This document shows positions 29,823-63,483 of a stretch of 64,000 bases of DNA, in pieces (within the stretch, counting starts at the first letter, position 1; the number at the start of each line of letters is the position of its first letter). The position numbers were made by a program, and so were the translations under genes. A model generated the notes under the pieces. It saw only the letters and a program-made list of their open reading frames with translations, ran no database searches and was not told the origin of the DNA. The stretch comes from Minisyncoccota bacterium (lineage in GTDB: Bacteria > Patescibacteriota > Microgenomatia > UBA1400 > PJMF01). The stretch lies in the NCBI GenBank assembly GCA_012515515.1, contig JAAYYE010000012.1, positions 48,604 to 112,603 on the forward strand, written 5' to 3'.

Positions 29823-30300
29823 TGTGTTTGTTTAATAATTTTACTGTTTCTCGCATGACATTTTGCATTCTATGCAGATAAGCAATGGCCTCGCTTAGGC
29901 TTAAAACTTTCTCACCATTGGGAAAAAAATGAAAAACATGGTTGCGGCAAACCAACCAAGTTTGCCAAATTTCTCTAGCCAACTCTTGATTAAAAATCCG
30001 AGCAATATCATCAAAAAACCACCATTGATCTCGTTGTTTGGGACTGACATCAGGATTTAAGGCCCGACCAATACGAAAGCGCCGGCCATAATAAACCTTG
30101 TGGCTAATTAATTCTAAATCTAATAAAACCTTTTTAAGAAAACCCTCATAAGCCTTGGCCATAGGAAAAACCACAAAAGAGAAATCATTAATATTAGTGT
30201 CATTAACAAATTGCTCGCTTAAATAAAAGCTAGTCTTGACTAAATTTTGCTGCCAAGAATCTAAATATTGAAAACAGGGTTCTTCTTGAAAGGTTTGCAT
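29797..30300 (-). CDS. Hypothetical protein with HepT/DUF86-like HEPN motif (RNHVFHFF = Rx4HxF)
   Basis: Motif CRNHVFHFF at residues 121-128 of 167 resembles HepT RNxxxHEY; no other recognizable domain. Confidence 0.3.
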   Translation of the reverse strand: MQTFQEEPCFQYLDSWQQNLVKTSFYLSEQFVNDTNINDFSFVVFPMAKAYEGFLKKVLLDLELISHKVYYGRRFRIGRALNPDVSPKQRDQWWFFDDIARIFNQELAREIWQTWLVCRNHVFHFFPNGEKVLSLSEAIAYLHRMQNVMRETVKLLNKHNESKAIES

Positions 30301-34068: not shown

Positions 34069-34080
34069 ATGAGGAGAAAA

Positions 34081-36105
34081 TTAAAAATCTTTGCTAAATT
34101 GCTTCGCTAAGAAGAAAGACCAGGTTCCCGTAGCTACAAAAAACAAGCCTATTACCAATAAACTTAAGGTGTTAAATGTTGAGCCCGCATTATAGGTACC
34201 ACTTTGGGTAGAAACCACAGTTTCTCTAATACTGGCTGTTGCTTCTTCAATAGGTTCGACTGTGGGAACGGGAGTTGGCGTTACATCTTTAACTGGTAAA
34301 TAAGGATCGCCAGTGCCATGAGGCAAGTCTGAGCCTGTTTGAGCGCTAGCAATAGGTCTCGTTTCATTTTCAATATTACTGCCAGGAGGAGAAACTGTAA
34401 AATTATAGCTTTTAGACACTTCTTGACCGGTTCCTGGATCGATGTAGGTATAATTAATGCTGTGCTCTCCAGGGCTTAAGTTCTTTTTTAAACTGGCTAT
34501 ATCGACCTCAACATTGCCATCGGCATCTGTTTCTACAATGGTTTCAATGGCAGTGTCTGAATGAATCTCGATTTTAACAGTGACATTGGGTGGTAAATTA
34601 GCCTTAATGATTGGCTGGGTGCTTGTTATAACATTATCTTGAGCTGTGCTAGCTTCATCAACTTCGTTTAAATCTAGTATTCGCTGACTATCAGCCAAAG
34701 CTGTTATCTCCTCCTCACCCCATTCATTCTCTAATTGGTTGTTTTGTGCTAAATTGGCATCAGTGCTTGCTTCTTCTTGGATAACTTCGTGTGTTTCCAG
34801 CTCTTCACTATCAACAGAATTTTCGCTACTTTCAAACTCCTCAGCCAACAATTCTTCTCTGGTGGTTAATGATTCTTCGCTAGCCTCCTGACCAACAATA
34901 ATTTCTGGCACCGGTTGAGCGCCAGCCACATTCACCACTCTATTAGAGACTGAATTTAAATCAATTCCTTGAACTTTGATTGATAAAACAGTATCTTCAC
35001 TTACTTGTGGGTAAGCATTAAGACTTAAATTAAAAGCATTGGCTAAAGACACTGCCCAACTTCCAGAGGATTTAACAATAGTTGATAAAGCGCCAGCTCC
35101 CTCAGGAGTAACAAAGACAATTGCCCCCTCTCCAGGCTGACCACTTATCTGACCAACTGTTCCATAGATTGTTTGATTATTTGGAGAAGCATTGCTTAAA
35201 CTACTTGCGGTTGTGATTTGATAAGGAGCACCATTGTTATCAAAACTTGAATTGCTGCCAGTGCTTAAATTGTAATAGTAGCTTGTATTTGGCTCTAAAC
35301 CTCTGACTGTAATATGGTGTAAACGATACGGCTTAATTACACCAGACAACTGATCACGATCATCACTAGCCTGTTGTTTTATATCATTAGCGCTTGGACC
35401 ATATTTAACAGAAGCAATAATCTCTTCATCAGTATAAAAAGAAACTGTAAAGGCTTTGTCTGTGACATTGCTGACAACAATATTTTGCGGAGTTGTGGCT
35501 GGTGTCGCTCTCGGAGCAAACAGCCCGGTGCCATTTCCAAACAAGAGCACTCCCGCCACCATGGAAACAATTAAAATCAGTAAACCCAAAAGTGTTGGGA
35601 TTTTTTTCTTAACTGTTTTATTATCTGTTTTTTTATCTGTTTTTCCGCCTGAAATTTTCCATTTTTTTGAGGGTTTTTCTTTAGCTTTTTTGCCAATTTC
35701 TTCAGTTGGTACAACTTTATCTTTATTTGAATTTGCTTTTGGCATTGTCTTTGCGGGTGAGCTTGGAGCAACGCTTGGAGTTGGAGTTTGAACTGGGGCT
35801 GGAATTGGAGCTACAGCTTGAGCTGGGACTACAACCTTGCCTGCAGCTGATGTTGGACTGGTAGCTGATGCTACACCTGGCGGAGAGGAACCCGCTGGAG
35901 CGACTACTTTTGGAGTTGCGCTCGGCAATTTTACTTGTTTTGTTAGATTAATTTGCGCGGGATTGGCTTTTTGAGTATTAACCAACGGATTTGGCATTTT
36001 TACAGGGGTATTGGTTTGAGCAGTTGCGGATTGAGGAGGCACCGGCTTTGGCAAATTTAAACCTAGTTGAGGATTAGTTGGTTGATTTTGATTTAAAATT
36101 TGCAT
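34081..36105 (-). CDS. Large surface protein: Pro/Thr/Ala-rich N-terminal region, TM, fibronectin type III-like domain, acidic region, C-terminal TM anchor
   Basis: Low-complexity PTPS-rich N-terminus; FTVSFYTDE...YGPS...HHITVRGLEPNTSYYY Fn3/PAP-N-like block; C-terminal hydrophobic LLVIGLFFVATGTWSFFLA. Confidence 0.4.
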   Translation of the reverse strand: MQILNQNQPTNPQLGLNLPKPVPPQSATAQTNTPVKMPNPLVNTQKANPAQINLTKQVKLPSATPKVVAPAGSSPPGVASATSPTSAAGKVVVPAQAVAPIPAPVQTPTPSVAPSSPAKTMPKANSNKDKVVPTEEIGKKAKEKPSKKWKISGGKTDKKTDNKTVKKKIPTLLGLLILIVSMVAGVLLFGNGTGLFAPRATPATTPQNIVVSNVTDKAFTVSFYTDEEIIASVKYGPSANDIKQQASDDRDQLSGVIKPYRLHHITVRGLEPNTSYYYNLSTGSNSSFDNNGAPYQITTASSLSNASPNNQTIYGTVGQISGQPGEGAIVFVTPEGAGALSTIVKSSGSWAVSLANAFNLSLNAYPQVSEDTVLSIKVQGIDLNSVSNRVVNVAGAQPVPEIIVGQEASEESLTTREELLAEEFESSENSVDSEELETHEVIQEEASTDANLAQNNQLENEWGEEEITALADSQRILDLNEVDEASTAQDNVITSTQPIIKANLPPNVTVKIEIHSDTAIETIVETDADGNVEVDIASLKKNLSPGEHSINYTYIDPGTGQEVSKSYNFTVSPPGSNIENETRPIASAQTGSDLPHGTGDPYLPVKDVTPTPVPTVEPIEEATASIRETVVSTQSGTYNAGSTFNTLSLLVIGLFFVATGTWSFFLAKQFSKDF

Positions 36106-36233: not shown

Positions 36234-36716
36234 TTAGTATTCGGCAAAATTATTTTCTTCGATAATTTCTTCTGCAGCTTCATCTGCCACTTCAGCTTCA
36301 TATTCAAATTCATCCGCAACTTCCGCTTCATATTCGGCTTCATCTTCAACTACATTTTCACCTTCGCCTTCATTATTTATTGATAAATCAGTGATATTCG
36401 TTAAAACACCTTCTTCCTTACTCTTAGCATCGCCAAACTTAAAATAGACAAAAATGGGAAAGGACTCTAATTCTTCATCGCTTACTAGTCGTTTTTCTTC
36501 AATTAGTGAGAAAACGTCGGTTTCTAAGCGAGGAACTAGTGGTTTAGCAATTGCTGTTAAATGTGAATCAATTTGCACTTTTTTTTGAGAAGTGAAAATA
36601 CTAATGGCAGTCCAAAGCAAAATCAGCACTAAAAACAAAACGCCAACCCATAGAATGCTTTTTTGACGACGCAAGCGATTCAACTCTTGTTTTAGTCTGG
36701 CTTTTTCTTTATTCAT
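36234..36716 (-). CDS. Hypothetical single-TM protein with highly acidic repetitive C-terminus
   Basis: TM ILWVGVLFLVLILLWTAISIF; C-terminal EYEAEVADE repeats encoded by 27-nt tandem repeat. Confidence 0.3.
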   Translation of the reverse strand: MNKEKARLKQELNRLRRQKSILWVGVLFLVLILLWTAISIFTSQKKVQIDSHLTAIAKPLVPRLETDVFSLIEEKRLVSDEELESFPIFVYFKFGDAKSKEEGVLTNITDLSINNEGEGENVVEDEAEYEAEVADEFEYEAEVADEAAEEIIEENNFAEY

Positions 36717-37348
36717 TCTTTATCCAAAGTTGAACTTAATAAATAATGCGGCAAAGAAACTTTTAATTGAGCTGCTAAATTATCAGACTCTGTCATCTTT
36801 TCTATTAAAACCTGATCAACCACCACCACTTGTCGTAAATTCATAATTTTTTCAATAAATTCTCTAATGTCTATATAAGAGCCAATAACACCTACATTTA
36901 TGCTTAAAAATTCACGCTGATAATCCCCAAAATCGCCACTTAGCAGTTCAGTTTCAACTGTTTCTGGCACTTTTTGAACACTCATTCGGTCAATCGCAAA
37001 TTCTCCCTCTCCTGCTAATTTTTCAATTTTTTTCAAGGATTTAACTAAATCTAGTTGTCTAGGAATTGCCTCATCTAATAAATAAAATTGAGGTTGATAA
37101 AGATCATATTGTTCCTGAGCTGAGGCTAAGCTGGCTAATTTTAGATCCAGCTGTTTATTAATCTCTTTTTTATCAGCAATTTCTTTAACCAAGTCAGCCA
37201 TAGTAATTAAAGTCGGACGTATAGCGAAAAGAGCAAAAAAAATGACGACTATTACTGATAAAATTAATTCAATTGATACTCTGGCTACCGGTTTTTGATA
37301 GAAATCCATTAAAACTGTTGCTAATTGTTCTTGTTTGCTTTTTGCCAT
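36713..37348 (-). CDS. PilO-like bitopic membrane protein (TM + coiled coil + C-terminal domain)
   Basis: Architecture only: N-terminal TM, coiled coil, about 100-aa C-domain; 4-nt overlap with downstream gene. Confidence 0.25.
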   Translation of the reverse strand: MAKSKQEQLATVLMDFYQKPVARVSIELILSVIVVIFFALFAIRPTLITMADLVKEIADKKEINKQLDLKLASLASAQEQYDLYQPQFYLLDEAIPRQLDLVKSLKKIEKLAGEGEFAIDRMSVQKVPETVETELLSGDFGDYQREFLSINVGVIGSYIDIREFIEKIMNLRQVVVVDQVLIEKMTESDNLAAQLKVSLPHYLLSSTLDKE

Positions 37349-37357
37349 AACTTTTAA

Positions 37358-37957
37358 TTATTTATTCGTTTGTTCGCTAGATTTATTGTTTGCGACAATT
37401 TTTGCCTGCATATCAAACATTAAGCCTGGTAAATCCTCACCTCTAGATTCAATGCTACCTATGCTCACCTCTTCGAAGTGTGGCGATAATTGCACATTTC
37501 TAACTAAAATATCAAAAGCTGTTTGAGATAGGGCTATGCCTGAAAATACCACTTCGCTGGGTTTAATTGTCAACTCATCCAAGATAACATTGCTTGGAAT
37601 TGTTTCGTTTAATAGCGGAAAAATTTCTACTAAATTGGCTTCTTGCTGCAGCTGCTTGATATCGGTCATTTGAGCTTGAACAAACAGGAAGCGTTTTTCT
37701 AGATCGCCATAAGATTCTATAGCCATTTTTTGTTGACTTATAGCTGAATTTAGATCTGTTACTTGCCGATCTAAAACAAAACGGGTTAAAAAACTAATAA
37801 TTACCACTAATTGAGTAAAAATTACGATATAACGCCCTATAGAGACAGTCCACTTTAGAGATCGACCGATGGCTGTTTCAAAAAAAGGATCCTTGGGTAT
37901 TAAGTTGACATCTAAAACAACCGCAGTTCCTTTTTGCTTTTTTCTAGCTTTGGGCAT
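37358..37957 (-). CDS. PilN-like protein (type IV pilus/competence assembly)
   Basis: N-terminal VLDVNLIPKDP resembling PilN INLLP motif followed by TM and coiled coil. Confidence 0.35.
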   Translation of the reverse strand: MPKARKKQKGTAVVLDVNLIPKDPFFETAIGRSLKWTVSIGRYIVIFTQLVVIISFLTRFVLDRQVTDLNSAISQQKMAIESYGDLEKRFLFVQAQMTDIKQLQQEANLVEIFPLLNETIPSNVILDELTIKPSEVVFSGIALSQTAFDILVRNVQLSPHFEEVSIGSIESRGEDLPGLMFDMQAKIVANNKSSEQTNK

Positions 37958-42820: not shown

Positions 42821-43444
42821 ATGAAAAAACCAGTAAGACAAATCGATGATTATTCAGAAGTCATGCGACAAGAGACTCCAAGTAATAATTGTCTAAGAGC
42901 TTTTATCCCCAAACCTAAAAAAATTTCTTTTGAAATTCAAGATCATGAGGAAAAAATTGTTCTAGTGCTACGACAGCATCCAATTACTCAGATTAAAAGC
43001 GTGCTCATGATCCTTTTCTTGTTTGTATTTCTACCGTTCTTACTAAAAGTAGCTGGCTTGACTGCTGTTCTTCCAGATAAATTTAGAGTTGCTGGAAATA
43101 TTTTCCTTTTCTTTCTAGCTATTGGTATAGCTTTCCGTTCCTTTCTAATGTGGTTTTTTAACGTTTACATTATTACCGATGAAAGAATTATTGACGTTGA
43201 TTTTATATCAATGATTTATAAAAATATTTCCACTGCAAAAATAGATAATATCGAAGATATTACCAAAAAATCCTCAGGTATCGTTGCTAATCTTTTTGAT
43301 TATGGCACGATCTTAATTCAAACAGCTGCAACCAAGAATGAGTTTGAATTTGATCATGTTCCTCATCCAGCAAAAGTAGTTAAATTGCTAAATGAATTAG
43401 TGATCGAAGAAGAAAGAGAAAAAATTGAAGGGAGAGTTAATTAG
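42821..43444 (+). CDS. Membrane protein with bacterial PH (bPH_2/YdbS-like) domain
   Basis: Two TM helices followed by ITDERIIDVDF...GTILIQTA pattern typical of membrane-flanked bPH domain. Confidence 0.45.
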   Translation: MKKPVRQIDDYSEVMRQETPSNNCLRAFIPKPKKISFEIQDHEEKIVLVLRQHPITQIKSVLMILFLFVFLPFLLKVAGLTAVLPDKFRVAGNIFLFFLAIGIAFRSFLMWFFNVYIITDERIIDVDFISMIYKNISTAKIDNIEDITKKSSGIVANLFDYGTILIQTAATKNEFEFDHVPHPAKVVKLLNELVIEEEREKIEGRVN

Positions 43445-43668
43445 TGCCAGAATTTTATCTTAATCAAAATTTTATTTCTATCTTACTTAAAATTTTTTTT
43501 GTGCTTGGAGCAAGTTTTTATCTGGTTTATTCTGTAGTTGTTGTCCGACAAATTACAGTCATGAAAAAAACTTTAATTACTGGTTTTAGCAGTGTGATTA
43601 ATTTGTTGGGAATGATTAATCTAGTTATGGCTGCAATACTCTTGCTTGCCTTTATATTGTTTCTCTAA
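43444..43668 (+). CDS. Small hypothetical membrane protein (2 TM)
   Basis: ORF only; overlaps stop of upstream gene. Confidence 0.25.
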   Translation: MPEFYLNQNFISILLKIFFVLGASFYLVYSVVVVRQITVMKKTLITGFSSVINLLGMINLVMAAILLLAFILFL

Positions 43669-43678: not shown

Positions 43679-43806
43679 CTTGGTTCTGGCCTCGACCTAT
43701 CTTCGCAAGGGGAAACCCCTAACTATTGTCAGCGCTGAGACGTTTCAAGACTCTGTTCGGGATGGGAAGAGTTGGGACCATCTCGCTCCAGAGACCAGAA
43801 CCAAAG
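43679..43806 (-). rRNA. rrf: 5S ribosomal RNA
   Basis: Minus-strand ...GATGGTCCCAACTCTTCCCATCCCGAACAGAGTCTTGAAACG... with helix I pairing CCTTTGGTTCTGG/CCAGAACCAAGG. Confidence 0.85.
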
Positions 43807-43904
43807 GTTTTTTATTTATTTGTTAATTATATAGCACAACTGTGCTTAAACATGTGAAGAAGTCAACCGTCACCCAATAATAGTCTTGAGAATTAACGAA
43901 AACT

Positions 43905-46823
<2,919 letters not shown>

Positions 46824-47020
46824 CGAATCATTGAAGTCTTCATTTTTTCTCGACTATTATTGAATAACAGTTGATAAAATTCTTCACATGTTAAAGAACA
46901 GTTGTTTGCCAAACAAACATTTTAACAATATTTGGTGGCTACTTATTAGCCTCTAGAAGTTCCGTTAGGAAAACATCCAAAGCCTAATAAGCAAACACCA
47001 ATTTAATTTTAATTATAGAG

Positions 47021-47094
47021 TGGACCCTAAGGGGCTCGAACCCTTGACCTCCACATTGCAAATGTGGCGCTCTAGCCAACTGAGCTAAGGGCCC
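47021..47094 (-). tRNA. tRNA-Ala (UGC)
   Basis: GGGCCCT...CCACA-TTTGCAA-TGTGG...GGGTTCGAGCCCC...AGGGTCC-A with G3.U70 identity pair. Confidence 0.9.
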
Positions 47095-47241: not shown

Positions 47242-49581
47242 TTACAATAATTGCGCTCGCTGACCGATTTCCTCTTCAAGTAATTCTTTGTCCTTGCCGT
47301 ATTTAAGCCGTGATAGTTTTTTAATTAGTTCTGATAATTTAGGATTCATTTTGGCCTCCTGAGCCTTAATGTCTTTTAAGAGTGACATGCTAAACGCACT
47401 TACCGGTTGATTATCAACAATAGTCTTTATATAAGCGTGATATTTATCGACATTGGCCAAGTCTGTTTCATTAAAAGTTGGTGAGAATTCATGTTGTAAA
47501 AAATTAGCATCAGTGACACCGACGCGAAAAGCCACCATCGTCCCCACATTACCAAAAACAGCATTTTTAATATCTTCTTCGATTTGACCAATAAATTGGT
47601 TAGCGACTATTAAATTTAAGCGATATTTACGAGCTTCAGACAAAATAGAAGCAAAATCTTCGGTGGCAAAGTTTTGAAATTCATCCACATAAAGGAAAAA
47701 GTCATTACGTTTCTCCATCGCGACATTTTGACGACTCATGGCAGCGGTTAAAATTTTAGGCACTAAAATTAAACCCAAAAATTTAGCATCTTCTTCACCA
47801 ATGACGCCTTTACTCAAATTACACAGAATAATTTTCTTCTCATCCATTGCCTTGCGAAAATCAAAAGCACTTTCACTTTGGCCAATGATGTTGCGCATGG
47901 TTTTGTTGGTCACAAAACGACCAAATTTCGAAACAATATAATCTAAGACTTCAGATTTGTGGAAATCACTGGTGCTCGCAATCTGGTCAGTCCAATAGCG
48001 CTTAACCATCGGATCTTTGACAAAAGGCAAATAATCTTCAACATATTTAGAATCAGTCAAAATTCTTACCAATTCAATAAAAGTTGCTCCAGGCTTGGCC
48101 ATAATGGTTAACATTCCATTGCGAATGGCGTGCTCAAAACGTGGACCAACAATTCCTGTTCGATGAGGATCGTAGAGCTTATACATTAAACCGATTACCG
48201 CGCTGGCCATAAATTGTTGCTGCTCTTCATTATGGGCTTCCATAATGTTCATCCCCAGTGGTCGCTCAGTATCGGCTGGATTAAAATAAATAACATCCTC
48301 GGCTCTTTCTGGAGGCATTAATTGCAATAAATCCTCAACCAGATCGCCGTGAGGATCAATGACTGCCACTCCTTGGCCGTTTTGAATATCCTGCAGAGCC
48401 AAATCTTTCAAAAATTCTGATTTACCTGTGCCTGTTTTTCCAATGATATAAGTGTGACGACGGCGATCTTCAAGAGACATATAAATCCCTCGTTCGACGC
48501 CTCGATATTTTGATTTACCCAAATACAAGCCTTTAGTGGGAATTTTATTTGAGGCTGGTGCGCTTTTAGCACTTAACCAACGCATATGGTGAGTTTCAAC
48601 TGTTTTATTAGGGAAATGCATTAGAGTAGCTAGTTCTTCAGTATTCAGAATGGTTTTTCTTAAGGGAATAAAAGACAGGTAGCGGTAAATAAAGTCGATC
48701 ATAAATGAGTGTTTAAAAAGGATGTTTCTTCTTTTAAATTCGTTATAAGGAGAAGAAAACTGAGAAAAAGCGCCAATTAAATTATTTAAATGAGCTTTGG
48801 CAGTCATGTCATTATTGGCTGAAACAACCATACGAATAGCAGTTTTAAAACCTGGTTTACTAATTTTAGTATTAATGGCTTCAACTTCTTTGGGGTCATG
48901 AGTGTAACTAGCTGTATCTGGATTAGCTTCTTGTTTTTTTTGCTTTTGATTATGACGTTCGCCTTTTATCTGCCAACCCCTTCCGGCCGGTTGCAGTAAA
49001 ATTTGTAAAGTGGCTCCTTCACCATCACTCATTTTCGATAAGGCACTGGTAATTAAAGACAAACCATCAGTTGGCAAATCTTTGTAAGTTTTAATTGGAT
49101 AAAAACTGGCTTTATCCAACTTTAGATCACTAAACGCGACTCGACCCGTATCACTAAAAATATTAACTTCATCGACTTCACTAATGGCCGCTGATGGATA
49201 AGCTCCATTAATTTGTTTTTCTACCAAATCTTGAATATGGCGAGGACAAGTAACATAAAAAGCAATATCTTCTTTCAGACCTATAATTTCAAAACCAATA
49301 GTTTCTTCAGGTTCTAAGAATGAAAAAGCGCCAACCTTTTTTAGTGAATAAAGACCTGCAAACATTTGTTCCGCAGCATCAATCTTAATTTCATTACTTT
49401 TTGGCAACTTAACCAGTAAGGTGACAAAATTAAGAGCATATTTCTCTCGACGCCTATTTTTAATAAAGATGCTTAGAGAATAAAGTAAAAAAGCTACTAC
49501 ACCCACCAAAATTAAAACCGTTAAAAAATTTAAGACAAAATTATTGGCGCTAGATAGTATTTGTTCTCCTTGTGGCGACAT
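47242..49581 (-). CDS. VirB4/TraG(VirD4)-family conjugation/type IV secretion-like P-loop ATPase with single N-terminal TM
   Basis: Walker A HTYIIGKTGTGKSEF, VAVIDPHGD, Walker B LYVDEFQNF, ARKYRLNLIVANQ (TrwB/TraD-like arginine finger region); Walker A at about residue 390 of 779 as in VirB4. Confidence 0.55.
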   Translation of the reverse strand: MSPQGEQILSSANNFVLNFLTVLILVGVVAFLLYSLSIFIKNRRREKYALNFVTLLVKLPKSNEIKIDAAEQMFAGLYSLKKVGAFSFLEPEETIGFEIIGLKEDIAFYVTCPRHIQDLVEKQINGAYPSAAISEVDEVNIFSDTGRVAFSDLKLDKASFYPIKTYKDLPTDGLSLITSALSKMSDGEGATLQILLQPAGRGWQIKGERHNQKQKKQEANPDTASYTHDPKEVEAINTKISKPGFKTAIRMVVSANNDMTAKAHLNNLIGAFSQFSSPYNEFKRRNILFKHSFMIDFIYRYLSFIPLRKTILNTEELATLMHFPNKTVETHHMRWLSAKSAPASNKIPTKGLYLGKSKYRGVERGIYMSLEDRRRHTYIIGKTGTGKSEFLKDLALQDIQNGQGVAVIDPHGDLVEDLLQLMPPERAEDVIYFNPADTERPLGMNIMEAHNEEQQQFMASAVIGLMYKLYDPHRTGIVGPRFEHAIRNGMLTIMAKPGATFIELVRILTDSKYVEDYLPFVKDPMVKRYWTDQIASTSDFHKSEVLDYIVSKFGRFVTNKTMRNIIGQSESAFDFRKAMDEKKIILCNLSKGVIGEEDAKFLGLILVPKILTAAMSRQNVAMEKRNDFFLYVDEFQNFATEDFASILSEARKYRLNLIVANQFIGQIEEDIKNAVFGNVGTMVAFRVGVTDANFLQHEFSPTFNETDLANVDKYHAYIKTIVDNQPVSAFSMSLLKDIKAQEAKMNPKLSELIKKLSRLKYGKDKELLEEEIGQRAQLL

Positions 49582-49614
49582 ACTTGTTTATTTTATTCTA
49601 ATATTTTATCAATT

Positions 49615-50319
49615 TTAAACATCAGTACTATTTTCGACTTCTTCTTTATATAGTACTGCTCCTGAGAAAATTTTTCTGATTTTATCAGCCCATTCGGCTA
49701 ACCAACGCAAACTAAAATTCAGGCCTTTTTTCTTGGCTTCTGTTTTTTGCTTTTCTGTAATGGGTAAAACAACCACCGGTTTAACCTGGCTTGGCGCGGT
49801 CTGGGCTTGACCAGCAAGCTGATCTATGGCGCTTTGTTGTTTTTCGGCCAGCTCTTTGGCTTCTTGCTCTCGATCAACTTCTTTGATTTCGCTCAATTCT
49901 TGACCAAGCTCTCTTATTTCTGAAGCTTCGCTGGATTTAATTAGTTCCGCTACTGGAGCGTTTTCACTAGCTTGCTGCTCAGTTGAGGGAGTTTTTTCTG
50001 GAGCTACTTGAGTTTCTAGCTGGCTATTGCCCAGCTCAGCTAAATCTAGCTGAGCTTCTGGCACAGCCGTATCAGCCGGTCGAATTAATTCTTTTTGACG
50101 CGACTGAGTTGATGAAGCAGCTGGTCGTTGTTGCTCAACTTCATTGATGGCATCTTCCAGCAAGTCTAAGGCTTGTCGATTTGATATTAAGTTTGTTGAT
50201 TTATCACTGGAGAGTGACTGAGCAGTTAAAAATTGAGCCAAGTTTGGATATTTCTTCAAGTCTAGATTTTGTAATAAAGGAACTGTAGCTCGATCGTTAG
50301 GCATGAATCCATCATACAA
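49615..50319 (-). CDS. Hypothetical acidic protein
   Basis: ORF only; E/Q/A-rich, no TM. Confidence 0.3.
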   Translation of the reverse strand: MYDGFMPNDRATVPLLQNLDLKKYPNLAQFLTAQSLSSDKSTNLISNRQALDLLEDAINEVEQQRPAASSTQSRQKELIRPADTAVPEAQLDLAELGNSQLETQVAPEKTPSTEQQASENAPVAELIKSSEASEIRELGQELSEIKEVDREQEAKELAEKQQSAIDQLAGQAQTAPSQVKPVVVLPITEKQKTEAKKKGLNFSLRWLAEWADKIRKIFSGAVLYKEEVENSTDV

Positions 50320-50346: not shown

Positions 50347-50865
50347 TTAAAAAAGGCTTAAATAGAGCTTGTCCCCCAACATTTCTTCTGACAGAAAATC
50401 TGGATTGGTCTCGAGCACCCAATCTACTTTTTGAGGCGATGGATAAATCGGCAAGGTATCGGTGGGAGTTGTTGGTTCAGGTGCCAGTGCCCGCCTCGTA
50501 CAATTTACTAATTTTTTATCCTCTATCCAGCAAATATCGATGTCGAATTGCACATCTTTCATCCAAAATTGCCGAATTTTTGTTTCTGGAAAAATAAAGA
50601 GCATGCCGTCAATCTCTTGGCCATTAATGCTTTGTAATTGCGAACGAGATGACAAGCCTTGCCGCACAGAATTTTCACTTTTTGCCACCTCAACTAATAG
50701 AGTTTGTCCTTGACGAGAAAAAAAGTTGTTTTTGATCTGCAATTTGACTAATTGACCATCTTTAACAAAAAACTGCCAAAGCTGACTCTGATAAAACAGT
50801 ATTAAACAAACAAAGAAAAAGACTACTACTATTAATAGTTTAATTTTTTTAAGCTTATTTGACAT
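50347..50865 (-). CDS. DUF192 (COG1430) family protein with N-terminal TM
   Basis: GMLFIFP...FWMKDVQFDIDICWI pattern typical of DUF192. Confidence 0.45.
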   Translation of the reverse strand: MSNKLKKIKLLIVVVFFFVCLILFYQSQLWQFFVKDGQLVKLQIKNNFFSRQGQTLLVEVAKSENSVRQGLSSRSQLQSINGQEIDGMLFIFPETKIRQFWMKDVQFDIDICWIEDKKLVNCTRRALAPEPTTPTDTLPIYPSPQKVDWVLETNPDFLSEEMLGDKLYLSLF

Positions 50866-50880
50866 TGAGCGCTCAAGTAA

Positions 50881-51384
50881 TTAGTAAAGTAATAAAAACA
50901 ATATTAATAAAAAATAGGCAGATGAAACTATTTGAATAATCCTCATCTCAGATAAATTTACTCGCTTCTTGGTGTTTTGCAAAAAATTTTGATTAAAAAG
51001 ATCTTCTTTAGTACTCAATTGCCAAATTTCAATCAATATGACTAAATTGAGTGCCATGATTAGACCTATGCCAACCACACTACCCGTAGAAGTGAGCACG
51101 AAAATACTTAAAAAAGGTAAAATTAAAATAAATAAGGGACTGCGCGTAATTAAGATTTTCTCTTCTAGTTCATCAAGATAGATTTTTTGCAAATATTTTT
51201 CATCACCCAACATTAAAAATAAGCCCAAGCCGTATGAAAAAATAAATAATAAAATTTGCGACCATGAATTACTTATGTCCCAGTGCTGCTTGATCAACAA
51301 AAACAAAACAAAAAGGATTAAAACCACTAATAAAATAATTTTTTTAACTTGCTCTTCTTTCTTATTAAATATCTTCATAAGCAA
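50881..51384 (-). CDS. Hypothetical polytopic membrane protein
   Basis: 4-5 TM helices; ORF only. Confidence 0.3.
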   Translation of the reverse strand: MLMKIFNKKEEQVKKIILLVVLILFVLFLLIKQHWDISNSWSQILLFIFSYGLGLFLMLGDEKYLQKIYLDELEEKILITRSPLFILILPFLSIFVLTSTGSVVGIGLIMALNLVILIEIWQLSTKEDLFNQNFLQNTKKRVNLSEMRIIQIVSSAYFLLILFLLLY

Positions 51385-51392
51385 AATTACAT

Positions 51393-52631
51393 TTAATTAT
51401 TAAAACCTTTTAAAGATAAAATTTTCTGGCTAGTTTGATCAACCAATCTTTGAAAATCTAAAGATTCTTCATATTTGCTCTCCAAATCATTAATGAGGGA
51501 ATTTAATTGGGCGTAATCAAAGCCTTTGCCGAAAAGCAAAACATGATTGCCAGCTTCAATTGCTTCAATGGCAATTGTTGAAAGGGGCTTTTTTTCCTTA
51601 CTTCCAGGTATATAACTGGCCGATTCCATTAATAAATCATCAGTAATTACTAAGACATTAGGATAAAACTGAAAAAGTTGATCCAAACACTGTTTGCTTA
51701 AAGAACAGGCTTGACCAGCTAATTTATCTTGGATTCGCACGTGAGTCGACATTACTCCAATATTGGGATATTGATCTAAAATTTTTTCAAAAATTAAAGT
51801 ATCGTTTTTATCTAAAATCACTGTGTCTTGATTGAAATGTAAATCCTGCGCAATACTGCCAATTCCAGGAAAATGTTTCAAAACTGGCATAATTCGCCAA
51901 TTGGAAAAAGCCCTAATATATTCCTGAGCAACTTGCACAATATTATCTGGATCATTGCCAATTCTACTGCTTAAAATCGGATTGTGTGTTGGCGAATAAT
52001 CCACCATCGGCGCTAAAATTAAATTAATGCCCGCTTCAGATAATTCTTGAGCTGATTGATTAAGCAGCTTATTTCTCTCTCTAGCATTAAGTGATGTTGA
52101 GTCCACATCATCTTCAGAAGAGCTAACGCTCTCAGTAAATAGGCGCATGCTGGGCAAAATACTAAAGCCTTCTCCACTGAAACGTTGCACTAGGCCCCCT
52201 TCATGATCAACAGCTAACAAGGGCAAAAATTGGGACTCAAAGTGATCAAGTAAAAAGCTTTGATATTTTTTTGCTGCTGCGTAAGAAATTTCTTCACCAA
52301 AATAGATGATGAAGCCTGGTTTGTGTTCGATTAATAATTTTAGGGTTTCATTTTCTTCTAAATTAATGTCATTATTTACAGAATCTGTGTTGCTATCTTC
52401 AGCGGAGATTTCATGTTCAATCACTAGAGGCAACATTAGCATTTGACTAATTTTTTCTCTAGTAGTTAAATCGGTAAGACTTAACTCTTGTTCTTGCTCT
52501 TCTGGCAAATCAGCTGGCTCATCTAGAACTGGTTCGGGAAAATACTTTAAAAAGGGTTGTGCAAAATAGTTGTAAGCTAAAAAAGCTGCTAAAAGTGCTA
52601 AACAAACAATTAAAAGATTGCGCCATTTCAT
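51393..52631 (-). CDS. nagZ: Beta-N-acetylhexosaminidase, GH3 (NagZ-like), secreted
   Basis: Signal peptide; KHFPGIG motif and GH3 N-terminal domain layout. Confidence 0.65.
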   Translation of the reverse strand: MKWRNLLIVCLALLAAFLAYNYFAQPFLKYFPEPVLDEPADLPEEQEQELSLTDLTTREKISQMLMLPLVIEHEISAEDSNTDSVNNDINLEENETLKLLIEHKPGFIIYFGEEISYAAAKKYQSFLLDHFESQFLPLLAVDHEGGLVQRFSGEGFSILPSMRLFTESVSSSEDDVDSTSLNARERNKLLNQSAQELSEAGINLILAPMVDYSPTHNPILSSRIGNDPDNIVQVAQEYIRAFSNWRIMPVLKHFPGIGSIAQDLHFNQDTVILDKNDTLIFEKILDQYPNIGVMSTHVRIQDKLAGQACSLSKQCLDQLFQFYPNVLVITDDLLMESASYIPGSKEKKPLSTIAIEAIEAGNHVLLFGKGFDYAQLNSLINDLESKYEESLDFQRLVDQTSQKILSLKGFNN

Positions 52632-52643
52632 AAAATCATTTTA

Positions 52644-53138
52644 CTAAAGTTTTTGCTTTTTCTCGCCTGCTGTTTTACTTTGCTTGGCTGTTTTCTCTTT
52701 TTTAAGCAGATCTAGTTTCCACATAAAAAGCTTGGCTTTGCTTCTAGCATTGTGCGCATCACTTACAAAAGCCAAAGCCTGTTCCAGAATCGCTCGAGGA
52801 TAAGTTTTAGCTAATTTAATATACAGCGAAGTGCGAGCTTGATCTTCTAAAACAGTAGCCATATGACAGCCAAAAGCTTGGAATTCTTGGCTAATATATT
52901 TATTACTAGCCTTGATGGGATGATTGCTCAGCAAGTCAGATATCGCGCTAAATGGCTGCTTTTGCTGGCCAAAATCTTGATTTAGATCGCTGTCTTTTCT
53001 TAGTTCATTATCTTTTTTTTGAGAGTTTTGCCTTAAACCTAGCTCTTTATTTTTGCTCAATAAATTGTCATCAAAAAGAGTTTGTTCGGTGATTTTGATT
53101 GATTTAGCTTGTTTTTTACTTTTTCTTGTAAGAGGCAT
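52644..53138 (-). CDS. Hypothetical basic protein
   Basis: ORF only. Confidence 0.25.
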   Translation of the reverse strand: MPLTRKSKKQAKSIKITEQTLFDDNLLSKNKELGLRQNSQKKDNELRKDSDLNQDFGQQKQPFSAISDLLSNHPIKASNKYISQEFQAFGCHMATVLEDQARTSLYIKLAKTYPRAILEQALAFVSDAHNARSKAKLFMWKLDLLKKEKTAKQSKTAGEKKQKL

Positions 53139-53182
53139 AAAAAGTTTACTTTTTTGCTATTGTAAAAGCAAAAAGAAACAAA

Positions 53183-53872
53183 TCAAAGGATGATTTTCTT
53201 TAAAAGTTGATGATTTTGTGCCACTAATTTTGGATCAAATGGACCTTGCTCGCCAATTAACACTTTTAGTTGATGTTCTCCAGCCAGCTGTTGATAAAAA
53301 TCTAATTGAGTTTTTAAAATCTCTTTTGCCTCAGCCAAATTTTTCTTTCCATTATTGGTAAATTCGGCTAACCAGTCAGCGCTAATTAGATATTGGCCTA
53401 AATTATAGACTTCTTCACCACCAGCAATTGTAAAACAGACTTGGTTAGCTAAATGCATATTGTGAGGACGAACCATATGTCCTTTGACACTGCCTGCCAA
53501 TTCTTTTGGATCAGCAAAAGGCAAAATGCCCACATATTCTAGCTTTACCTGATCAGCCAGCGCTGCCAAATGTTGTTGCGCACTAGCATTGGTTTCATCC
53601 CAATCATTAAGTTTTAATTGCTGTTTAATCCAAGAATTTTCTTCGCTCGCAGCAATTTTTAATTTTTTATCTAATTGTTCTTTGGGTAAAGCATTATTAA
53701 GCACTTTTTGCAAAGATTTTACTACCTTGGAGAAATGTGGCAAACGAAAACCAGAGCCTAAAAAAGCAAAACGACGACCATGATTGAGCTGCACGCCTTC
53801 ATCGCCATCTGCAATGACTAAGGGCACTGGCTGATACTCGGCAGGTTCAACTGATCGACTGTTCTTGCTCAT
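53183..53872 (-). CDS. Hypothetical protein
   Basis: ORF only. Confidence 0.25.
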   Translation of the reverse strand: MSKNSRSVEPAEYQPVPLVIADGDEGVQLNHGRRFAFLGSGFRLPHFSKVVKSLQKVLNNALPKEQLDKKLKIAASEENSWIKQQLKLNDWDETNASAQQHLAALADQVKLEYVGILPFADPKELAGSVKGHMVRPHNMHLANQVCFTIAGGEEVYNLGQYLISADWLAEFTNNGKKNLAEAKEILKTQLDFYQQLAGEHQLKVLIGEQGPFDPKLVAQNHQLLKKIIL

Positions 53873-54139: not shown

Positions 54140-55249
54140 TTACTTGTAGGTAATCGGTAAATCTGTTTGCACAATAGAGAGGCTCATCCGACGTTGTTCT
54201 GGCACAACATTTTCCACATTGACAGTTACCTCATCACCGACTTTTAATTCTTTGCTAGGATCAAGCTTGGTTGAATGAATTAAACCATCAACGCCTTTTT
54301 CTACGTTGACAAATACACCAAATGCTTCAATTCTAGTCACTTTACCAGTAAAAGTGGTGCCAGCAGCATAGCGTTCAACCAAATTATTCCAAGGATCTTC
54401 ACCTAATTGCTTAATTGATAAATTAAGTTTGTTGGTTCTCTCATCAATGCCCAAGACTTTCACTTTGACTTTATCGCCGACTTTATGATAATCCTTGGGA
54501 TGATTGACTTTTTCCCAAGAAATTTCAGAAATGTGAATCAGTCCTTCTATATAACCAGTGCTATCTTTTTTATCTTCATCTTTTACGGGGACTTCGACAG
54601 TAACAAATAAGCCAAAGTGCATTACCCCAGAGACAATTCCTTCATAAATCGCGCCTTCTTGAACATTTTCCACTGCTAAGTCTTTTTGCGCCAATTCCTT
54701 GGCTTCGCTTACGTGACGTTCAGAAAAAATTAAACGATTTTTTTCGCGATCAACTTCAATCGCTTTAACTTTAAAAGCTTCGCCTTTCAGAGAAGAAATT
54801 TTTCCCATATATTGACGGCCAAATTGGCTAGAAGGTACAAAACCACGAACACCATTAACTAAAACAATTAAACCACCGCGATTCAATTCAATGCCTTTAG
54901 CCTCTAAATCAAGATCTTTGTCTAAAGCCTCTTCAAAATATTCCCATTTCGCGTCGGAAGCTGCTCCTTTGAGAGATAATAAGACTTGGCCATTATCGTA
55001 ATCGGTTGAAACAACTATGCCTTTAACTTCATCACCAACTTTTAACTCATCAATAAAATCACTGGCAAATTCAAATTCCTTATCTGCCACATAAGCTTCG
55101 GTCTTAGCTCCTAAATCAATTACTAAATTCTTTTTATTTTTTTCAACAATCACGCCAGTAACCGTATCTCCTTTTTGAGGAATTACTAGCTTATCTGCAT
55201 TAGCTTTTAAAAGCTCCTCCATCGTTATTTTTTTTGTACTATTCGCCAT
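54140..55249 (-). CDS. rpsA: 30S ribosomal protein S1 (4 S1 domains)
   Basis: Repeated S1 OB-fold blocks (G.V.G.V..I...G.FV); likely start MANSTKKITMEEL at 55249, ORF-track 5' extension to 55516 improbable. Confidence 0.8.
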   Translation of the reverse strand: MANSTKKITMEELLKANADKLVIPQKGDTVTGVIVEKNKKNLVIDLGAKTEAYVADKEFEFASDFIDELKVGDEVKGIVVSTDYDNGQVLLSLKGAASDAKWEYFEEALDKDLDLEAKGIELNRGGLIVLVNGVRGFVPSSQFGRQYMGKISSLKGEAFKVKAIEVDREKNRLIFSERHVSEAKELAQKDLAVENVQEGAIYEGIVSGVMHFGLFVTVEVPVKDEDKKDSTGYIEGLIHISEISWEKVNHPKDYHKVGDKVKVKVLGIDERTNKLNLSIKQLGEDPWNNLVERYAAGTTFTGKVTRIEAFGVFVNVEKGVDGLIHSTKLDPSKELKVGDEVTVNVENVVPEQRRMSLSIVQTDLPITYK

Positions 55250-55337
55250 ATCAAAATAGTTCCTTTCTTTTTGATCTGTGTATTGTAACACAAGTTTGCT
55301 GTTGTTTACTCTAGGAAAAGATGGCAAAATAGAGCTC

Positions 55338-56651
55338 ATGATTAACTGCCCAAAAATTAAAGATATTAAAAATAAACAAGTTTTAGTTAGAGTAGATTTT
55401 AATGTTCCACTCAAACTGGTCGCTGGTAAAGCCGGCAATAAAAATGCGGTGTGGCGGGTGGCCGACAGCGATAGAATCAGCAGCGCACTAGAAACGATTA
55501 ATTTTCTCTTAGACAATCAGGCTAAAGTTGTTTTAATTTCTCATTTGGGTCGAGCTGATGGTAAAAAGAATCATGATTTAAGTCTTTTGCCAGTCGCTAA
55601 ATTTTTAAAAAATAACTTAGATTTACCAGTTGAATTTGTTAATGATTGTGTCGGAGCAGATGTGGCAGAAAAAGCGCGAAATTTGCGCAGTGGCCAAGCT
55701 TTATTGTTAGAAAATCTACGTTTTTATCCTGGAGAAGAAAAAAATGATCCTCATTTTACAAAACAATTGCTTAAAGACAGCGCGGCTGAAATTTATATTA
55801 ATGAAGCATTTAGCGCTAGTCATCGGGCTCATGCCAGCACCGTTGGTTTAGCCAAGCGCTTGCCCAGTTTCGCTGGCTTCAATTTGCAACGAGAAGTTGA
55901 GCTTTTTAGTAAAGCCCTCAATGATATTAAAAGACCATTGGTGGTAGTGATGGGCGGAGCAAAAATCTCTGACAAAGTGGCAACCATGCAAAATCTAGCT
56001 CGTTTAGCCGATGTTGTCTTGGTCGGCGGCGGCATTGCCAACGCCATGCTCAGAGCTGGTGGCATTGAAACTCATCGCTCTTTTATTGGCGCCGACGAGG
56101 AAAAAGAACAAGAAGAAATTGGCAAAATTCTGCAAACAGCTAAAGATATTCTTGGTGAACATGCGCTAGAGCGAGTGTTGTTTGAAAACGTAGGTAAAGA
56201 TCGAAAAAATTTACCTTTACCAAAAATTGTCTTGCCTATTGATGTTTTAGCAGGCAAAGACAGCGAGGCTAAAGAGAGCGAACAAGTCGCCTTATTAAGT
56301 GATGTACTCGATACTGACAATGATCGCGATATTAAATATTTAGATATCGGGCCAGAAACAATTAGGCTTTATCGCTATATTCTGCAGGGAGCAAAAACTA
56401 TTGTCTGGAATGGCCCCATGGGAGTTTTTGAGAATCCAGTTTTTGCTAGGGGTAGTAGAGAGGTGGCGCGCGCGATAGCGCGCGCAAGCCAAGACGGCGC
56501 GATTTCGCTGGTTGGCGGTGGAGAAAGCAATAGCGTCATCAACCGAGCTGGGCTTTACAATCAATTTACTCATGTTTCTAGTGCCGGTGGGGCCGCTTTA
56601 GAATTTTTGAGTGGAGAAAAATTGCCAGGCATTGAGGTTTTAGAAAAATAA
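55338..56651 (+). CDS. pgk: Phosphoglycerate kinase
   Basis: RVDFNVP N-terminal motif, GGGASLE-like VGGGESNS/GGAALEFLSGEKLPGI; start MINCPK at 55338. Confidence 0.85.
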   Translation: MINCPKIKDIKNKQVLVRVDFNVPLKLVAGKAGNKNAVWRVADSDRISSALETINFLLDNQAKVVLISHLGRADGKKNHDLSLLPVAKFLKNNLDLPVEFVNDCVGADVAEKARNLRSGQALLLENLRFYPGEEKNDPHFTKQLLKDSAAEIYINEAFSASHRAHASTVGLAKRLPSFAGFNLQREVELFSKALNDIKRPLVVVMGGAKISDKVATMQNLARLADVVLVGGGIANAMLRAGGIETHRSFIGADEEKEQEEIGKILQTAKDILGEHALERVLFENVGKDRKNLPLPKIVLPIDVLAGKDSEAKESEQVALLSDVLDTDNDRDIKYLDIGPETIRLYRYILQGAKTIVWNGPMGVFENPVFARGSREVARAIARASQDGAISLVGGGESNSVINRAGLYNQFTHVSSAGGAALEFLSGEKLPGIEVLEK

Positions 56652-61848: not shown

Positions 61849-63483
61849 TTATCTTGATATATTTTTTAAATTTTTTACTAAATAAACTTTAACAAGAAAT
61901 GGTGAGTCTTCCTCATACAACAATTCTTCCTCGATAACAAATTGGTTTGGACTACTTGATTCTGCGGCAATAGTAGATAAATCAAATAGAAAATCTGCCA
62001 CACAATCATTATCTTCGCCAGAACAAACTAGATAATAATAGTCAAATTTTAAATATTTCAAATTTCCAGAATAATTATTTGTGTTCTGATAGCTGGCAAT
62101 CAAATCGTTGGTGTAAAAGTATGTTTTGTTTATAAAATGATCAATTTTTTCACCTTGCCATTTCTGTGACCACAGATTTGACATCGCACTGTTACCATCT
62201 CTTGACATCTGACCCAAGTTGCTAAATATCAAGGTTCTGCTTCGTGGAATTCCGTTTGCATTTAGTGAGTTGAGAATTAACTGTGAAATGTTCTGATTGT
62301 TGAATGTTGAGTCAATATTTTTATACCTTAAAAGACGAAACGAGGCAAGTAAATTAATAGATGAAGTAAATAAGAAAAAAGAAATTAGTAGATAAAAAAT
62401 AAATTTTTCTTTAAAACCATTAAGCTTTTTATTTTCAGCCAATAATAAAAGAAGCCAGATTAAAAAAACTAAAGCTAAAACATCAAAACGATGATATGCT
62501 CCTAAAAAAGAAAGATTTTTTAATAACAAAGTACAAAATATAATCCATATTAACAAAAATGGAGAAGTAAAGGGCTTTATATAAGAAGTTCTTTTTTTAT
62601 TTTTTCTAAAAATAAAAAAAATAACTAATAGAAAAAAAACTAAAAATATTAGCAAATATTCCTTATGACTAACAAAAAACAATAAATAAAAACTCCTAAA
62701 AATTACATTAAAGTGATCAAAGATTCCAAAAAAATTAAAGGTCTGATTCTCGGACAAATCAAACAAAGATTGAAAAGAAATAAATTGATTTTGCGCTTCA
62801 AAAATCAATAAAGGTAAATAAACAATCAGAAAGTTTACAAATAAAGTTAATAGGCTGCAAAGAATGCTTTCAAGGCGATTAAACCGAATACTTTCTTTAA
62901 AAAAGTAGAATGAATTGTAAAAAATTATTGGAAAAACAAATATTGGCGAAGGATAAATCGCTAAAGCAATAAAAAAGAATAACTGACCAATAAGTAAATA
63001 AGTTATTTTCTCCTTTTTTAGAGCTAAAGTCCCAAATAAAAGGGCCAAAGACGAGAAAAAAAATATTGGATTAGGATGCCATATTTGTCGACTTATATAG
63101 TTTATGTGATAATGCCAAACAGAAAAAAATATAAAAATTAACAAAGAGCTTAATTTACTATTAGTTAACAAATAAATAAAATAAGTAAATATAAAAATTG
63201 TTAAAACTCCTAACAAAGCATAAAAGAAGCTTATAAATAAAATATTTCCGCTAATTGAATAAATACTTGCTAAAAGATAAAGATAAGTTGGCGGAATAAA
63301 GAAATCTTCCATCCCAACCGCCGGACCAACAAGGGGCAATTCTTTATTCTGATTGATTAATCTAGCAGCTTCTAGTTCATAACCACTATCATGAACCATA
63401 AAATTATTTTTAAGATTGAAAAACCTAAAATAAGAAGCCAACAAGAAAAACAACGACAATACTATAATAAATATTTTTTTCAT
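61849..63483 (-). CDS. Polytopic membrane protein, GT-C-like (ArnT/PMT-related) candidate
   Basis: More than 10 TM helices, N-terminal loop with HDSGYELEAARL, large C-terminal soluble domain. Confidence 0.35.
   Translation of the reverse strand: MKKIFIIVLSLFFLLASYFRFFNLKNNFMVHDSGYELEAARLINQNKELPLVGPAVGMEDFFIPPTYLYLLASIYSISGNILFISFFYALLGVLTIFIFTYFIYLLTNSKLSSLLIFIFFSVWHYHINYISRQIWHPNPIFFFSSLALLFGTLALKKEKITYLLIGQLFFFIALAIYPSPIFVFPIIFYNSFYFFKESIRFNRLESILCSLLTLFVNFLIVYLPLLIFEAQNQFISFQSLFDLSENQTFNFFGIFDHFNVIFRSFYLLFFVSHKEYLLIFLVFFLLVIFFIFRKNKKRTSYIKPFTSPFLLIWIIFCTLLLKNLSFLGAYHRFDVLALVFLIWLLLLLAENKKLNGFKEKFIFYLLISFFLFTSSINLLASFRLLRYKNIDSTFNNQNISQLILNSLNANGIPRSRTLIFSNLGQMSRDGNSAMSNLWSQKWQGEKIDHFINKTYFYTNDLIASYQNTNNYSGNLKYLKFDYYYLVCSGEDNDCVADFLFDLSTIAAESSSPNQFVIEEELLYEEDSPFLVKVYLVKNLKNISR

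Follow-up and report, generated by a model that had tools for sequence, protein, structure and literature searches.

Background

How does a motor ATPase of the conjugation or secretion type come to stand on a bacterial chromosome away from any secretion genes, and what might it do there? The question is raised by a gene in a 64 kb stretch of Patescibacteria chromosome, called the window below, and all coordinates are positions in this window. A first reading made from the DNA letters alone, the sequence-only reading, had placed an orphan ATPase of the VirB4/TraG family with a single transmembrane (TM) helix at 47242-50319. This interval was found to hold two co-directional minus-strand open reading frames (ORFs), 47242..49581 for the ATPase and 49615..50319 for a small acidic protein that we call the partner.

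We propose, with moderate confidence, that the ATPase is an exapted, membrane-anchored coupling motor, probably serving a type IV secretion system (T4SS) in trans. The family identity, the architecture, the intact catalytic residues, the partner gene, the ancestry and the existence of two paralogue clades are established. Gene order was compared over 82 loci from 80 species-representative genomes, all with an orthologue 66-98% identical to the ATPase.

Architecture and class of the motor

The ORF, the helix and the motifs were all recovered, and in this the sequence-only reading was right: the protein is a conjugation- or secretion-type motor with a single TM helix (coordinates are collected in Table 1). 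It is a RecA-like P-loop motor of the TrwB/FtsK/HerA class with an intact Walker A, an intact Walker B and the conserved glutamine; residues 651-662 read RKYRLNLIVANQ in the translation. K387, D633, E634 and Q662, the catalytic residues, do not vary among 51-61 diverse members of the family, nor do G381, G386 and K387 of Walker A among 61 of them. The residues KNRRREK follow directly after the TM helix, so by the positive-inside rule the bulk of the ATPase should be cytoplasmic. Most family representatives carry an N-terminal hydrophobic segment and a Walker A at about residues 380-450.

The domain between helix and motor is DUF8128. This assignment was taken from the precomputed annotation of the database protein P0001, which is identical to the ATPase and annotated with PF26449 (DUF8128), PF10412 and PF01935; the local Pfam scan gave no PF26449 match, the copy of Pfam used being probably without that model. 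The N-domain had no match at all in local Pfam, in a profile search against PDB sequences, or by HHalign to TrsD or to the N-terminal domain of TrwK. It ends in a conserved LNTEELAxxxHFP motif, and its conserved positions are E98, F108, P162, D172, Q193, K239, R250, N280, R300, E316, H322 and P324. An AlphaFold2 model based on an alignment of 61 sequences reached a pLDDT of 89.1 and a pTM of 0.80 (pLDDT 60.8 for an earlier model from 36 close homologues only). In the model the helical insertion, residues 452-566, is predicted to follow Walker A and precede Walker B, which is where type IV coupling proteins (T4CPs) have their all-alpha domain.

The sequence-only reading had named two classes for the motor, VirB4/TraC or TrwB/VirD4. 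Judged by sequence, the ATPase is of the VirD4/TrwB coupling-protein type and not a VirB4, so that only the second half of that claim stands. The Pfam matches were TrwB_AAD_bind with 39.6 bits (cut-off 20.5), TraG-D_C with 22.9 bits (cut-off 22), DUF87 and HerA_C. Among 51 diverse members, TrwB_AAD_bind was found in all 51, TraG-D_C in 48, T4SS-DNA_transf in 29 and CagE_TrbE_VirB in none. With HHalign, the family profile matched TrwB of R388 over a span that starts at Walker A, takes in the helical domain and reaches the Q motif (95.6%, E 1.2e-8).

An assembly ATPase of the VirB4/TraC type, in which the roughly 380 residues before Walker A would be the VirB4 N-terminal domain, is very improbable. 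Walker A does begin at residue 381, a VirB4-like position, and the top rank in Foldseek went to full-length TrwK/VirB4 of R388 (E 4.5e-16, about 860-890 aligned columns), with TrwB close behind (E 1.3e-13). The fold alone cannot separate a T4CP from a VirB4, but the sequence does. The VirB4 model TIGR00929 gave 18 bits against a cut-off of 643, HHalign gave 5.5% for TrwK/VirB4 of R388 and 0.1% for TrsD of pGO1 (a homologue of the N-terminal part of VirB4), and the match to TrsE of pGO1 was confined to the last 106, C-terminal columns. Furthermore, a separate genuine VirB4 exists in patescibacterial genomes, and the plasmid and phage homologues described below share an operon with a separate VirB4-like ATPase. 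A VirB4 identity was largely refuted by the profile scores and HHalign.

We give equally little credence to a DNA translocase of the HerA/FtsK type, acting in repair or anti-phage defence with a partner nuclease or effector. In its favour are the Pfam matches to DUF87 and HerA_C and, in PADLOC, weak matches to HerA and DndH next to the best match of the ATPase, mad8 of the MADS defence system (63 bits, residues 364-718). The mad8 match probably reflects the shared T4CP/HerA-like motor, and PADLOC found no other MADS component near the ATPase. The adjacent genes include no nuclease, Sir2, methylase or other defence gene, and PADLOC matched none of them; the HerA/FtsK relative with a partner nuclease for which the sequence-only reading had allowed was not found. 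The partner is disordered and carries no enzymatic domain, the ATPase gene belongs to the fixed core genes, in conserved synteny and not in a variable island, and the sequence profile prefers TrwB, TraG-D_C and T4SS-DNA_transf. Over at least 80 loci no conserved nuclease or effector partner was seen.

The ATPase differs from the canonical T4CPs (TrwB of R388, VirD4, TraD, TraG and DotL), to which it is about 16-18% identical. These have two N-terminal TM helices with the motor directly after them, and they are encoded with relaxase or T4SS genes. In the window ATPase one TM helix is followed by about 300 residues of DUF8128, a domain that canonical T4CPs do not have, before the motor begins. 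The same hydropathy method showed two TM helices in TrwB and one in the ATPase.

Conservation and ancestry

More than 6,700 homologous proteins were found at E<=1e-5, and 5,895 clusters of 50% identity at E<=1e-30, so that a chance ORF can be dismissed. Among relatives the ATPase is conserved as well as LepA and S1 or better (92% against 84% for LepA at locus L004, 77% against 67% at L011), and conservation like that of LepA and S1 fits a core function. A separate class of about 1,450 aa (amino acids), represented by P0239, P0242, P0244, P0247 and similar proteins, has the ATPase domain at its C-terminal end, preceded by about 1,000 residues with TPR repeats. It has no TM helix and no DUF8128 match, and at 49-53% its identity to the window ATPase exceeds that of many full-length family members.

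Outside the Patescibacteria, the nearest homologues are found on plasmids and phages. Matches in tBLASTn were obtained from 278 plasmids, including those of Streptomyces, Bacillus, Staphylococcus, Clostridium, haloarchaea and Sulfolobus, and from 46 phage records, including SPO1 gp27.4, 0305phi8-36 ORF201, CP-51 and TP-84, and this homology spans 80-90% of the ATPase. Predicted viral structures gave full-length matches to gp156 of phage G (E 1e-48) and to a phage JL protein (Foldseek TM-score 0.70). In HHalign the family profile matched both phage G gp156 (100%, E 2.5e-60) and a Bacillus subtilis plasmid protein (100%, E 1.9e-56, 673 columns) with the N-domain included; the full-length span to plasmid and phage members was 673-706 columns.

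The Tcp-type coupling ATPases of Bacillus plasmids (e.g. WP_345805471.1 on NZ_CP154917.1, named 'DUF87 domain-containing protein') are homologous over their full length, including a DUF8128-type N-domain, with about 25% identity in tBLASTn over 82-91% of the query. The Bacillus plasmid homologue heads a conjugation operon, followed by a Replic_Relax relaxase-like protein, TcpC, TcpE and a VirB4-like AAA_10 ATPase. These plasmid proteins are without an N-terminal TM helix, whereas the window ATPase has its TM anchor. Their genes lie in relaxase/T4SS operons, whereas the window gene is chromosomal, has no such neighbours and has the disordered partner in front of it. MOB-suite classed most of the homologue-carrying plasmids as 'non-mobilizable', yet both of those examined have a full Tcp-type operon.

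The phage ATPases (0305phi8-36 orf201, SPO1 gp27.4 and phage G gp156) show clear homology and the same two-domain architecture without a TM helix, and their genes adjoin a Replic_Relax/MobC-like relaxase or a VirB4-like ATPase. SPO1 gp27.4 lies beside the Replic_Relax protein gp27.3 and an Alp7A-like actin (L093, SPO1 92636-97329), and phage G gp156 follows the VirB4-like gp155 (L094, phage G 89194-93336). Pathria et al. 2012 described such phage genes as a relaxase plus coupling-ATPase 'DNA translocation operon', noted an N-terminal domain without a TM segment in the ATPase, and found the operon of 0305phi8-36 to be dispensable in the laboratory (PMC3357382).

These alignments and gene contexts place the ATPase in a monoderm T4CP family with the ancestral task of coupling DNA bound by a relaxase to a T4SS of the Tcp type. 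Three things set the patescibacterial members apart: a TM anchor was gained, the gene is chromosomal and the relaxase neighbour was lost.

Could the gene be in decay, left over from a conjugative element or prophage that had once integrated? The sequence-only reading had considered a remnant of an integrated element, but this can be given almost no weight. The plasmid and phage homologues would be in line with it, as would a tRNA gene adjoining the ATPase gene and a tyrosine recombinase gene at 10022-10888. The ORF is intact, however, with invariant catalytic residues; it is kept at 66-98% identity in the same chromosomal context over the 80 species and conserved at least as well as LepA and S1, and its G+C of 0.37-0.40 is that of the flanks. 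A relaxase, an integrase and a repeat boundary are all missing from its vicinity, and the recombinase lies 37 kb off among housekeeping genes and looks XerC/D-like. A decaying element was ruled out by the conservation and synteny data.

The partner protein

The partner gene was found directly upstream of the ATPase gene on the same strand in 81 of the 82 loci, the lone exception being a locus that starts at the ATPase itself. The gap between the two is 33 nt here and mostly -25 to +45 nt across loci. The ATG at 50304 is the likely start, because homologues begin at MPNDR.

The protein evolves fast, with 54-55% identity where the ATPase shows 92%. Its pI is 4.7, and the middle region is acidic and of low complexity (pI 4.2). 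No Pfam, NCBIfam or PADLOC match was found for it. The last 55 or so residues are nearly invariant over about 80 species and end in FS(I/L)RWLxEWxxKIxK(I/M)FxGxV(I/V/L)Y(K/R).

Four lineages further away likewise encode a small low-complexity protein directly upstream of the ATPase (351 aa and acidic, 208 aa and Q/P-rich, 119 aa and P/S/T-rich, and 210 aa). The C-terminal motif was not detected in these distant lineages and DUF192 and GH3 are absent from them, and therefore the sole family-wide neighbour is the disordered protein just upstream.

Two paralogue clades and an essential pair in Southlakia

The representatives carrying DUF8128 form two main clades, as obtained from pairwise distances and average-linkage clustering; quartet bootstraps of the paralogues were uninformative, both outgroup sequences being close sisters. 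Members of clade 2 are typically 900-1,100 aa long. At the two clade-2 loci examined, P0224 and P0233, a Sigma70_r4/HARE-HTH gene lies upstream, an arrangement that matches SEML1_0294 (RpoS) and SEML1_0293 of Southlakia epibionticum. SEML1_0293 was scored non-essential in transposon sequencing (Tn-seq) (Wang et al. 2023, PMC10633639).

Clade 3 consists of the window ATPase and the second paralogues of clade-2 genomes, which are nearer to the window ATPase than to their own genome-mates (41% against 37% and 43% against 39% identity). At one locus (L084, 3558-11237) two DUF8128-T4CP paralogues of 852 aa and 1,078 aa are separated only by a 170-aa gene and a sigma-factor gene.

Clade 3 also includes a Saccharibacteria cluster (P0220/P0336), at whose locus the order is YifB on the opposite strand, a small gene, a 210-aa protein, the ATPase, GyrB and GyrA. 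The order in S. epibionticum is the same: SEML1_0138 (YifB, opposite strand), 0140, 0141, 0142, and GyrB at 0145. The Saccharibacteria protein syntenic with SEML1_0142 shares both architecture and clade with the window ATPase. In the Tn-seq data SEML1_0142 (1,019 aa, 'TraM recognition domain-containing protein') was scored ES/ES/ES and SEML1_0141 (139 aa, upstream of SEML1_0142) GD/ES/ES (Wang et al. 2023, PMC10633639). From the shared synteny, length and clustering, the gene pair of the window would be the counterpart of the essential Southlakia pair SEML1_0141/0142, and we infer essentiality in the window organism as well. DUF8128 and SEML1_0142 were mentioned in none of the papers found.

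Service to a secretion system or a motor of its own

VirB4 has been reported in 2,417 of 3,035 Patescibacteria genomes, and VirD4-like T4CP homologues, 5,713 in number, in 2,918 of the 3,035, with 148 of the 5,713 near virB4 (Quinonero-Coronel et al. 2025, PMC12102498). The window gene belongs to these patescibacterial T4CP homologues far from virB4. For the unlinked ones a possible exaptation has been suggested, and the t4cp homologue of Southlakia was described as not essential (PMC12102498). The published "dispensable t4cp" would fit SEML1_0293, the other paralogue, a distinction drawn here. In Southlakia the T4SS is essential, and no recognisable coupling protein is present in its cluster (Wang et al. 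2023, PMC10633639).

For a close relative, Pacebacteria GWF2_38_9, Table S3 of the 2025 study gives virB4 as gene 40, trsD as gene 39, VirB2 pilins at genes 29-60, and a t4cp1-type gene 114 that is not near virB4 (PMC12102498). Gene 114 is the orthologue of the window ATPase (P0046, UT13_C0001G0104) and lies about 74 genes from virB4. With a T4SS at that distance in the relative, and with the partner directly upstream at nearly all loci, the designation 'orphan' in the sequence-only reading holds for the position of the gene and not for the genome. That no T4SS gene is nearby was confirmed for the 64 kb window (Pfam, ORFs of at least 110 aa). Additionally, in one genome (L097) a clade-3 gene 43% identical to the window ATPase is followed 9 nt downstream by a gene for a 238-aa VirB2-like pilin, with a signal peptide, two TM helices, a P/T-rich tail and a weak PF18895 match.

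We infer the following from these observations for ring assembly, partner docking and the link to a T4SS. By analogy with TrwB, the ATPase may assemble into a ring that is tethered to the membrane at its cytoplasmic side, and this ring would bind and hydrolyse ATP. The helical domain, DUF8128 or both could receive a substrate or an adaptor. The partner might dock on the ATPase through its C-terminal amphipathic module and act as adaptor, regulator or cargo. In the Patescibacteria the relaxase has gone and the gene, unlinked from virB4, has turned into a core gene, i.e. it has been 'domesticated'. The ATPase would then work in trans with a T4SS or pilus encoded elsewhere and hand its substrate to that translocon. 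Such a 'missing' coupling ATPase would deliver protein and not DNA substrates.

A number of results weigh against service to a T4SS in trans. The T4CP is found in more genomes than VirB4 and rarely near virB4, and Woesebacteria assemblies scored as VirB4-negative still have t4cp1 matches (PMC12102498). At least some members would, on these counts, seem to work without a T4SS. In GWF2_38_9 a t4cp2-type gene, number 21, lies near virB4 (PMC12102498). None of VirB4, VirB6, VirB8, relaxase or pilin was found as a gene in the window (Pfam, ORFs of at least 110 aa). The linkage to a pilin gene is that of a single lineage, with a weak Pfam match, and the orthology with SEML1_0142 is drawn from synteny, length and clustering and not from the SEML1 sequence. 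The conserved motif at the C-terminus of the partner is lineage-specific, as its hidden Markov model was silent on the upstream proteins and six-frame translations of distant loci. The single TM helix departs from the two of canonical T4CPs. All NCBIfam T4CP models scored far under their cut-offs, SXT_TraD being the best with 61 bits against 366, which makes the ATPase a divergent subfamily.

Several of these points would be explained by a self-contained, T4SS-independent envelope motor, the main rival of our proposal, which we regard as possible but rather unlikely. A minimal envelope-translocation system of this sort had been suggested in the sequence-only reading. It would be formed by the anchored ring and the disordered partner, possibly with other membrane proteins, and would move a macromolecule as a Patescibacteria-specific housekeeping function. 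Candidate cargoes are DNA in uptake or export, or the partner itself, recognised by its C-terminal module. In addition to the distribution of T4CP and VirB4 and the VirB4-negative Woesebacteria, such a motor would be in keeping with the housekeeping-level conservation and context, directly upstream of tRNA-Ala, 23S and 5S, and with the ATPase's own TM anchor, gained and absent in the plasmid and phage relatives. The T4SS cluster of GWF2_38_9 already holds a T4CP-like ATPase. The fast-evolving acidic body and invariant C-terminal tag of the partner are the layout of a substrate with a recognition signal, and there is weak NCBIfam similarity to the archaeal DNA-import ATPases CedB and CedD.

However, six single TM helices are unlikely to make a conduit, no channel partner is kept beyond the order-level lineage, and many of the VirB4-negative assemblies are incomplete metagenome-assembled genomes. 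The partner has neither a signal peptide nor a TM segment, and it ends in an acidic C-terminus, whereas known T4SS signals have positively charged tails. The clade-3 gene in L097 is directly linked to a VirB2-like pilin. Furthermore, Southlakia survives the deletion of comEC while SEML1_0142 is essential to it, which makes DNA uptake through ComEC an unlikely candidate for the essential role.

Slightly less likely is the wider proposal that the clade-3 ATPases and their disordered partners form a Patescibacteria-specific, essential and T4SS-independent envelope machine that reused a conjugation coupling motor. If true, it would be a housekeeping translocase, e.g. for export or presentation of the partner at the host interface or for movement of nucleic acid, and would explain why the Southlakia T4SS is apparently without a coupling protein.

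Genes around the pair

By its gene content the window is a stretch of ordinary Patescibacteria chromosome. It holds genes for DnaK/DnaJ/GrpE/HrcA, FtsH, GroEL, TsaD/TsaE and SmpB, and furthermore for two class A penicillin-binding proteins, NrdR, a B12-dependent ribonucleotide reductase, MurJ, PilN/PilO, LepA and S1 (Pfam, ORFs of at least 110 aa).

Table 1. Positions of the ATPase, its partner and selected neighbours in the window
Feature	Position	Strand	Basis or remark
Whole ATPase gene, 779 aa; TM helix, DUF8128 and T4CP-type ATPase	47242..49581, stop codon included	-	ORF and Pfam
Single N-terminal TM helix, residues 15-40, FVLNFLTVLILVGVVAFLLYSLSIFI	49462..49539	-	Translation and hydropathy
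DUF8128 N-terminal alpha/beta domain, about residues 50-345	48547..49434	-	Model secondary structure, conserved positions, homology
TrwB/VirD4-type nucleotide-binding domain, about residues 350-735	47377..48534	-	With helical insertion at about residues 452-566
Walker A GKTGTGKS, residues 381-388	48418..48441	-	Translation
Walker B FFLYVDEFQN, residues 628-637	47671..47700	-	Translation
Upstream partner, 229 aa from ATG (234 aa from TTG at 50319)	49615..50304	-	Acidic, low-complexity
Partner C-terminal module: PVVVLPIT, K-rich stretch, then FSLRWLAEWADKIRKIFSGAVLYKEE	49618..49794	-	Predicted amphipathic helix
Co-directional, tightly spaced array upstream of the partner	50347..53872	-	Gaps of 44, 12, 8, 15 and 42 nt
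tRNA-Ala(UGC), 23S and 5S unit	43684-47094	-	Directly downstream of the ATPase, same strand
207-aa membrane protein and overlapping 74-aa DUF5657 protein	42821-43668	+	Pair kept near the locus in the closest relatives
PilN (37358-37957), PilO (36713-37348) and a 160-aa protein without Pfam match	36234-37957	-	Directly downstream of MurJ

The members of the array upstream of the partner are a 229-aa protein of no assigned function, a 164-aa basic protein likewise without assignment, a GH3/NagZ-like enzyme with an N-terminal anchor, a 167-aa membrane protein with five predicted helices, and a DUF192 protein. The neighbours named in the sequence-only reading (an acidic protein, DUF192, a membrane protein and NagZ) were recovered. 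Over the 82 loci, DUF192 was found in 71, GH3 in 60, the 164-aa protein in 59 and the membrane protein in 51; the downstream side varies. None of the array genes was found near the ATPase of distant relatives. As the array is kept only within the order-level lineage, its functional membership is uncertain. Promoter and terminator scans gave counts at background and no evidence on operon boundaries.

No 16S rRNA gene was found in the 64 kb window, and it is therefore unlinked from 23S and 5S. The 23S of the window matches the full Rfam model and is without a large insertion. Genes for PilM, PilB and PilC were not found in the window (Pfam, ORFs of at least 110 aa).

The ORF of S1, 54140-55516 (minus strand), and that of phosphoglycerate kinase, 55278-56651 (plus strand), overlap by about 240 nt. 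The called genes of a relative are shorter (370 aa for S1 and 431 aa for phosphoglycerate kinase), so the true starts here are probably internal. Sizeable ORFs without a Pfam match include 19038-20798 (plus, 586 aa), 61849-63483 (minus, 544 aa), 28493-29176 (minus, 227 aa) and 29797-30300 (minus, 167 aa). At 32806-36105, a GH18 chitinase-like protein of 420 aa adjoins a protein of 674 aa that combines a purple-acid-phosphatase N-domain with an Ig-like domain; counting GH3/NagZ and the two class A penicillin-binding proteins as well, the region is rich in enzymes for cell wall and glycans.

Significance

Two parts of this picture were already known: the N-domain is in Pfam, and unlinked T4CPs of Patescibacteria have been published. 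The division of the paralogues into two clades that differ in their upstream genes, the placing of SEML1_0141/0142 in the clade of the window ATPase, the conserved disordered partner and the full-length homology to Replic_Relax-linked coupling ATPases of plasmids and phages appear not to have been stated before.

Patescibacteria depend on host bacteria, and in the one genetically studied species in question the T4SS is essential while its coupling ATPase and substrate are not known. The family described here is nearly universal in the phylum and evolves at the pace of a translation factor. By synteny it would include the essential pair SEML1_0141/SEML1_0142, which has not been discussed in the T4SS literature. 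Should our proposal be wrong, the gene would be an ordinary, already annotated T4CP homologue. Should it be true, the pair would offer a specific candidate for motor and adaptor of the essential secretion machinery, or else for a new stand-alone translocase, and the family would show clearly how a conjugation module can be taken over for a core function of the cell.

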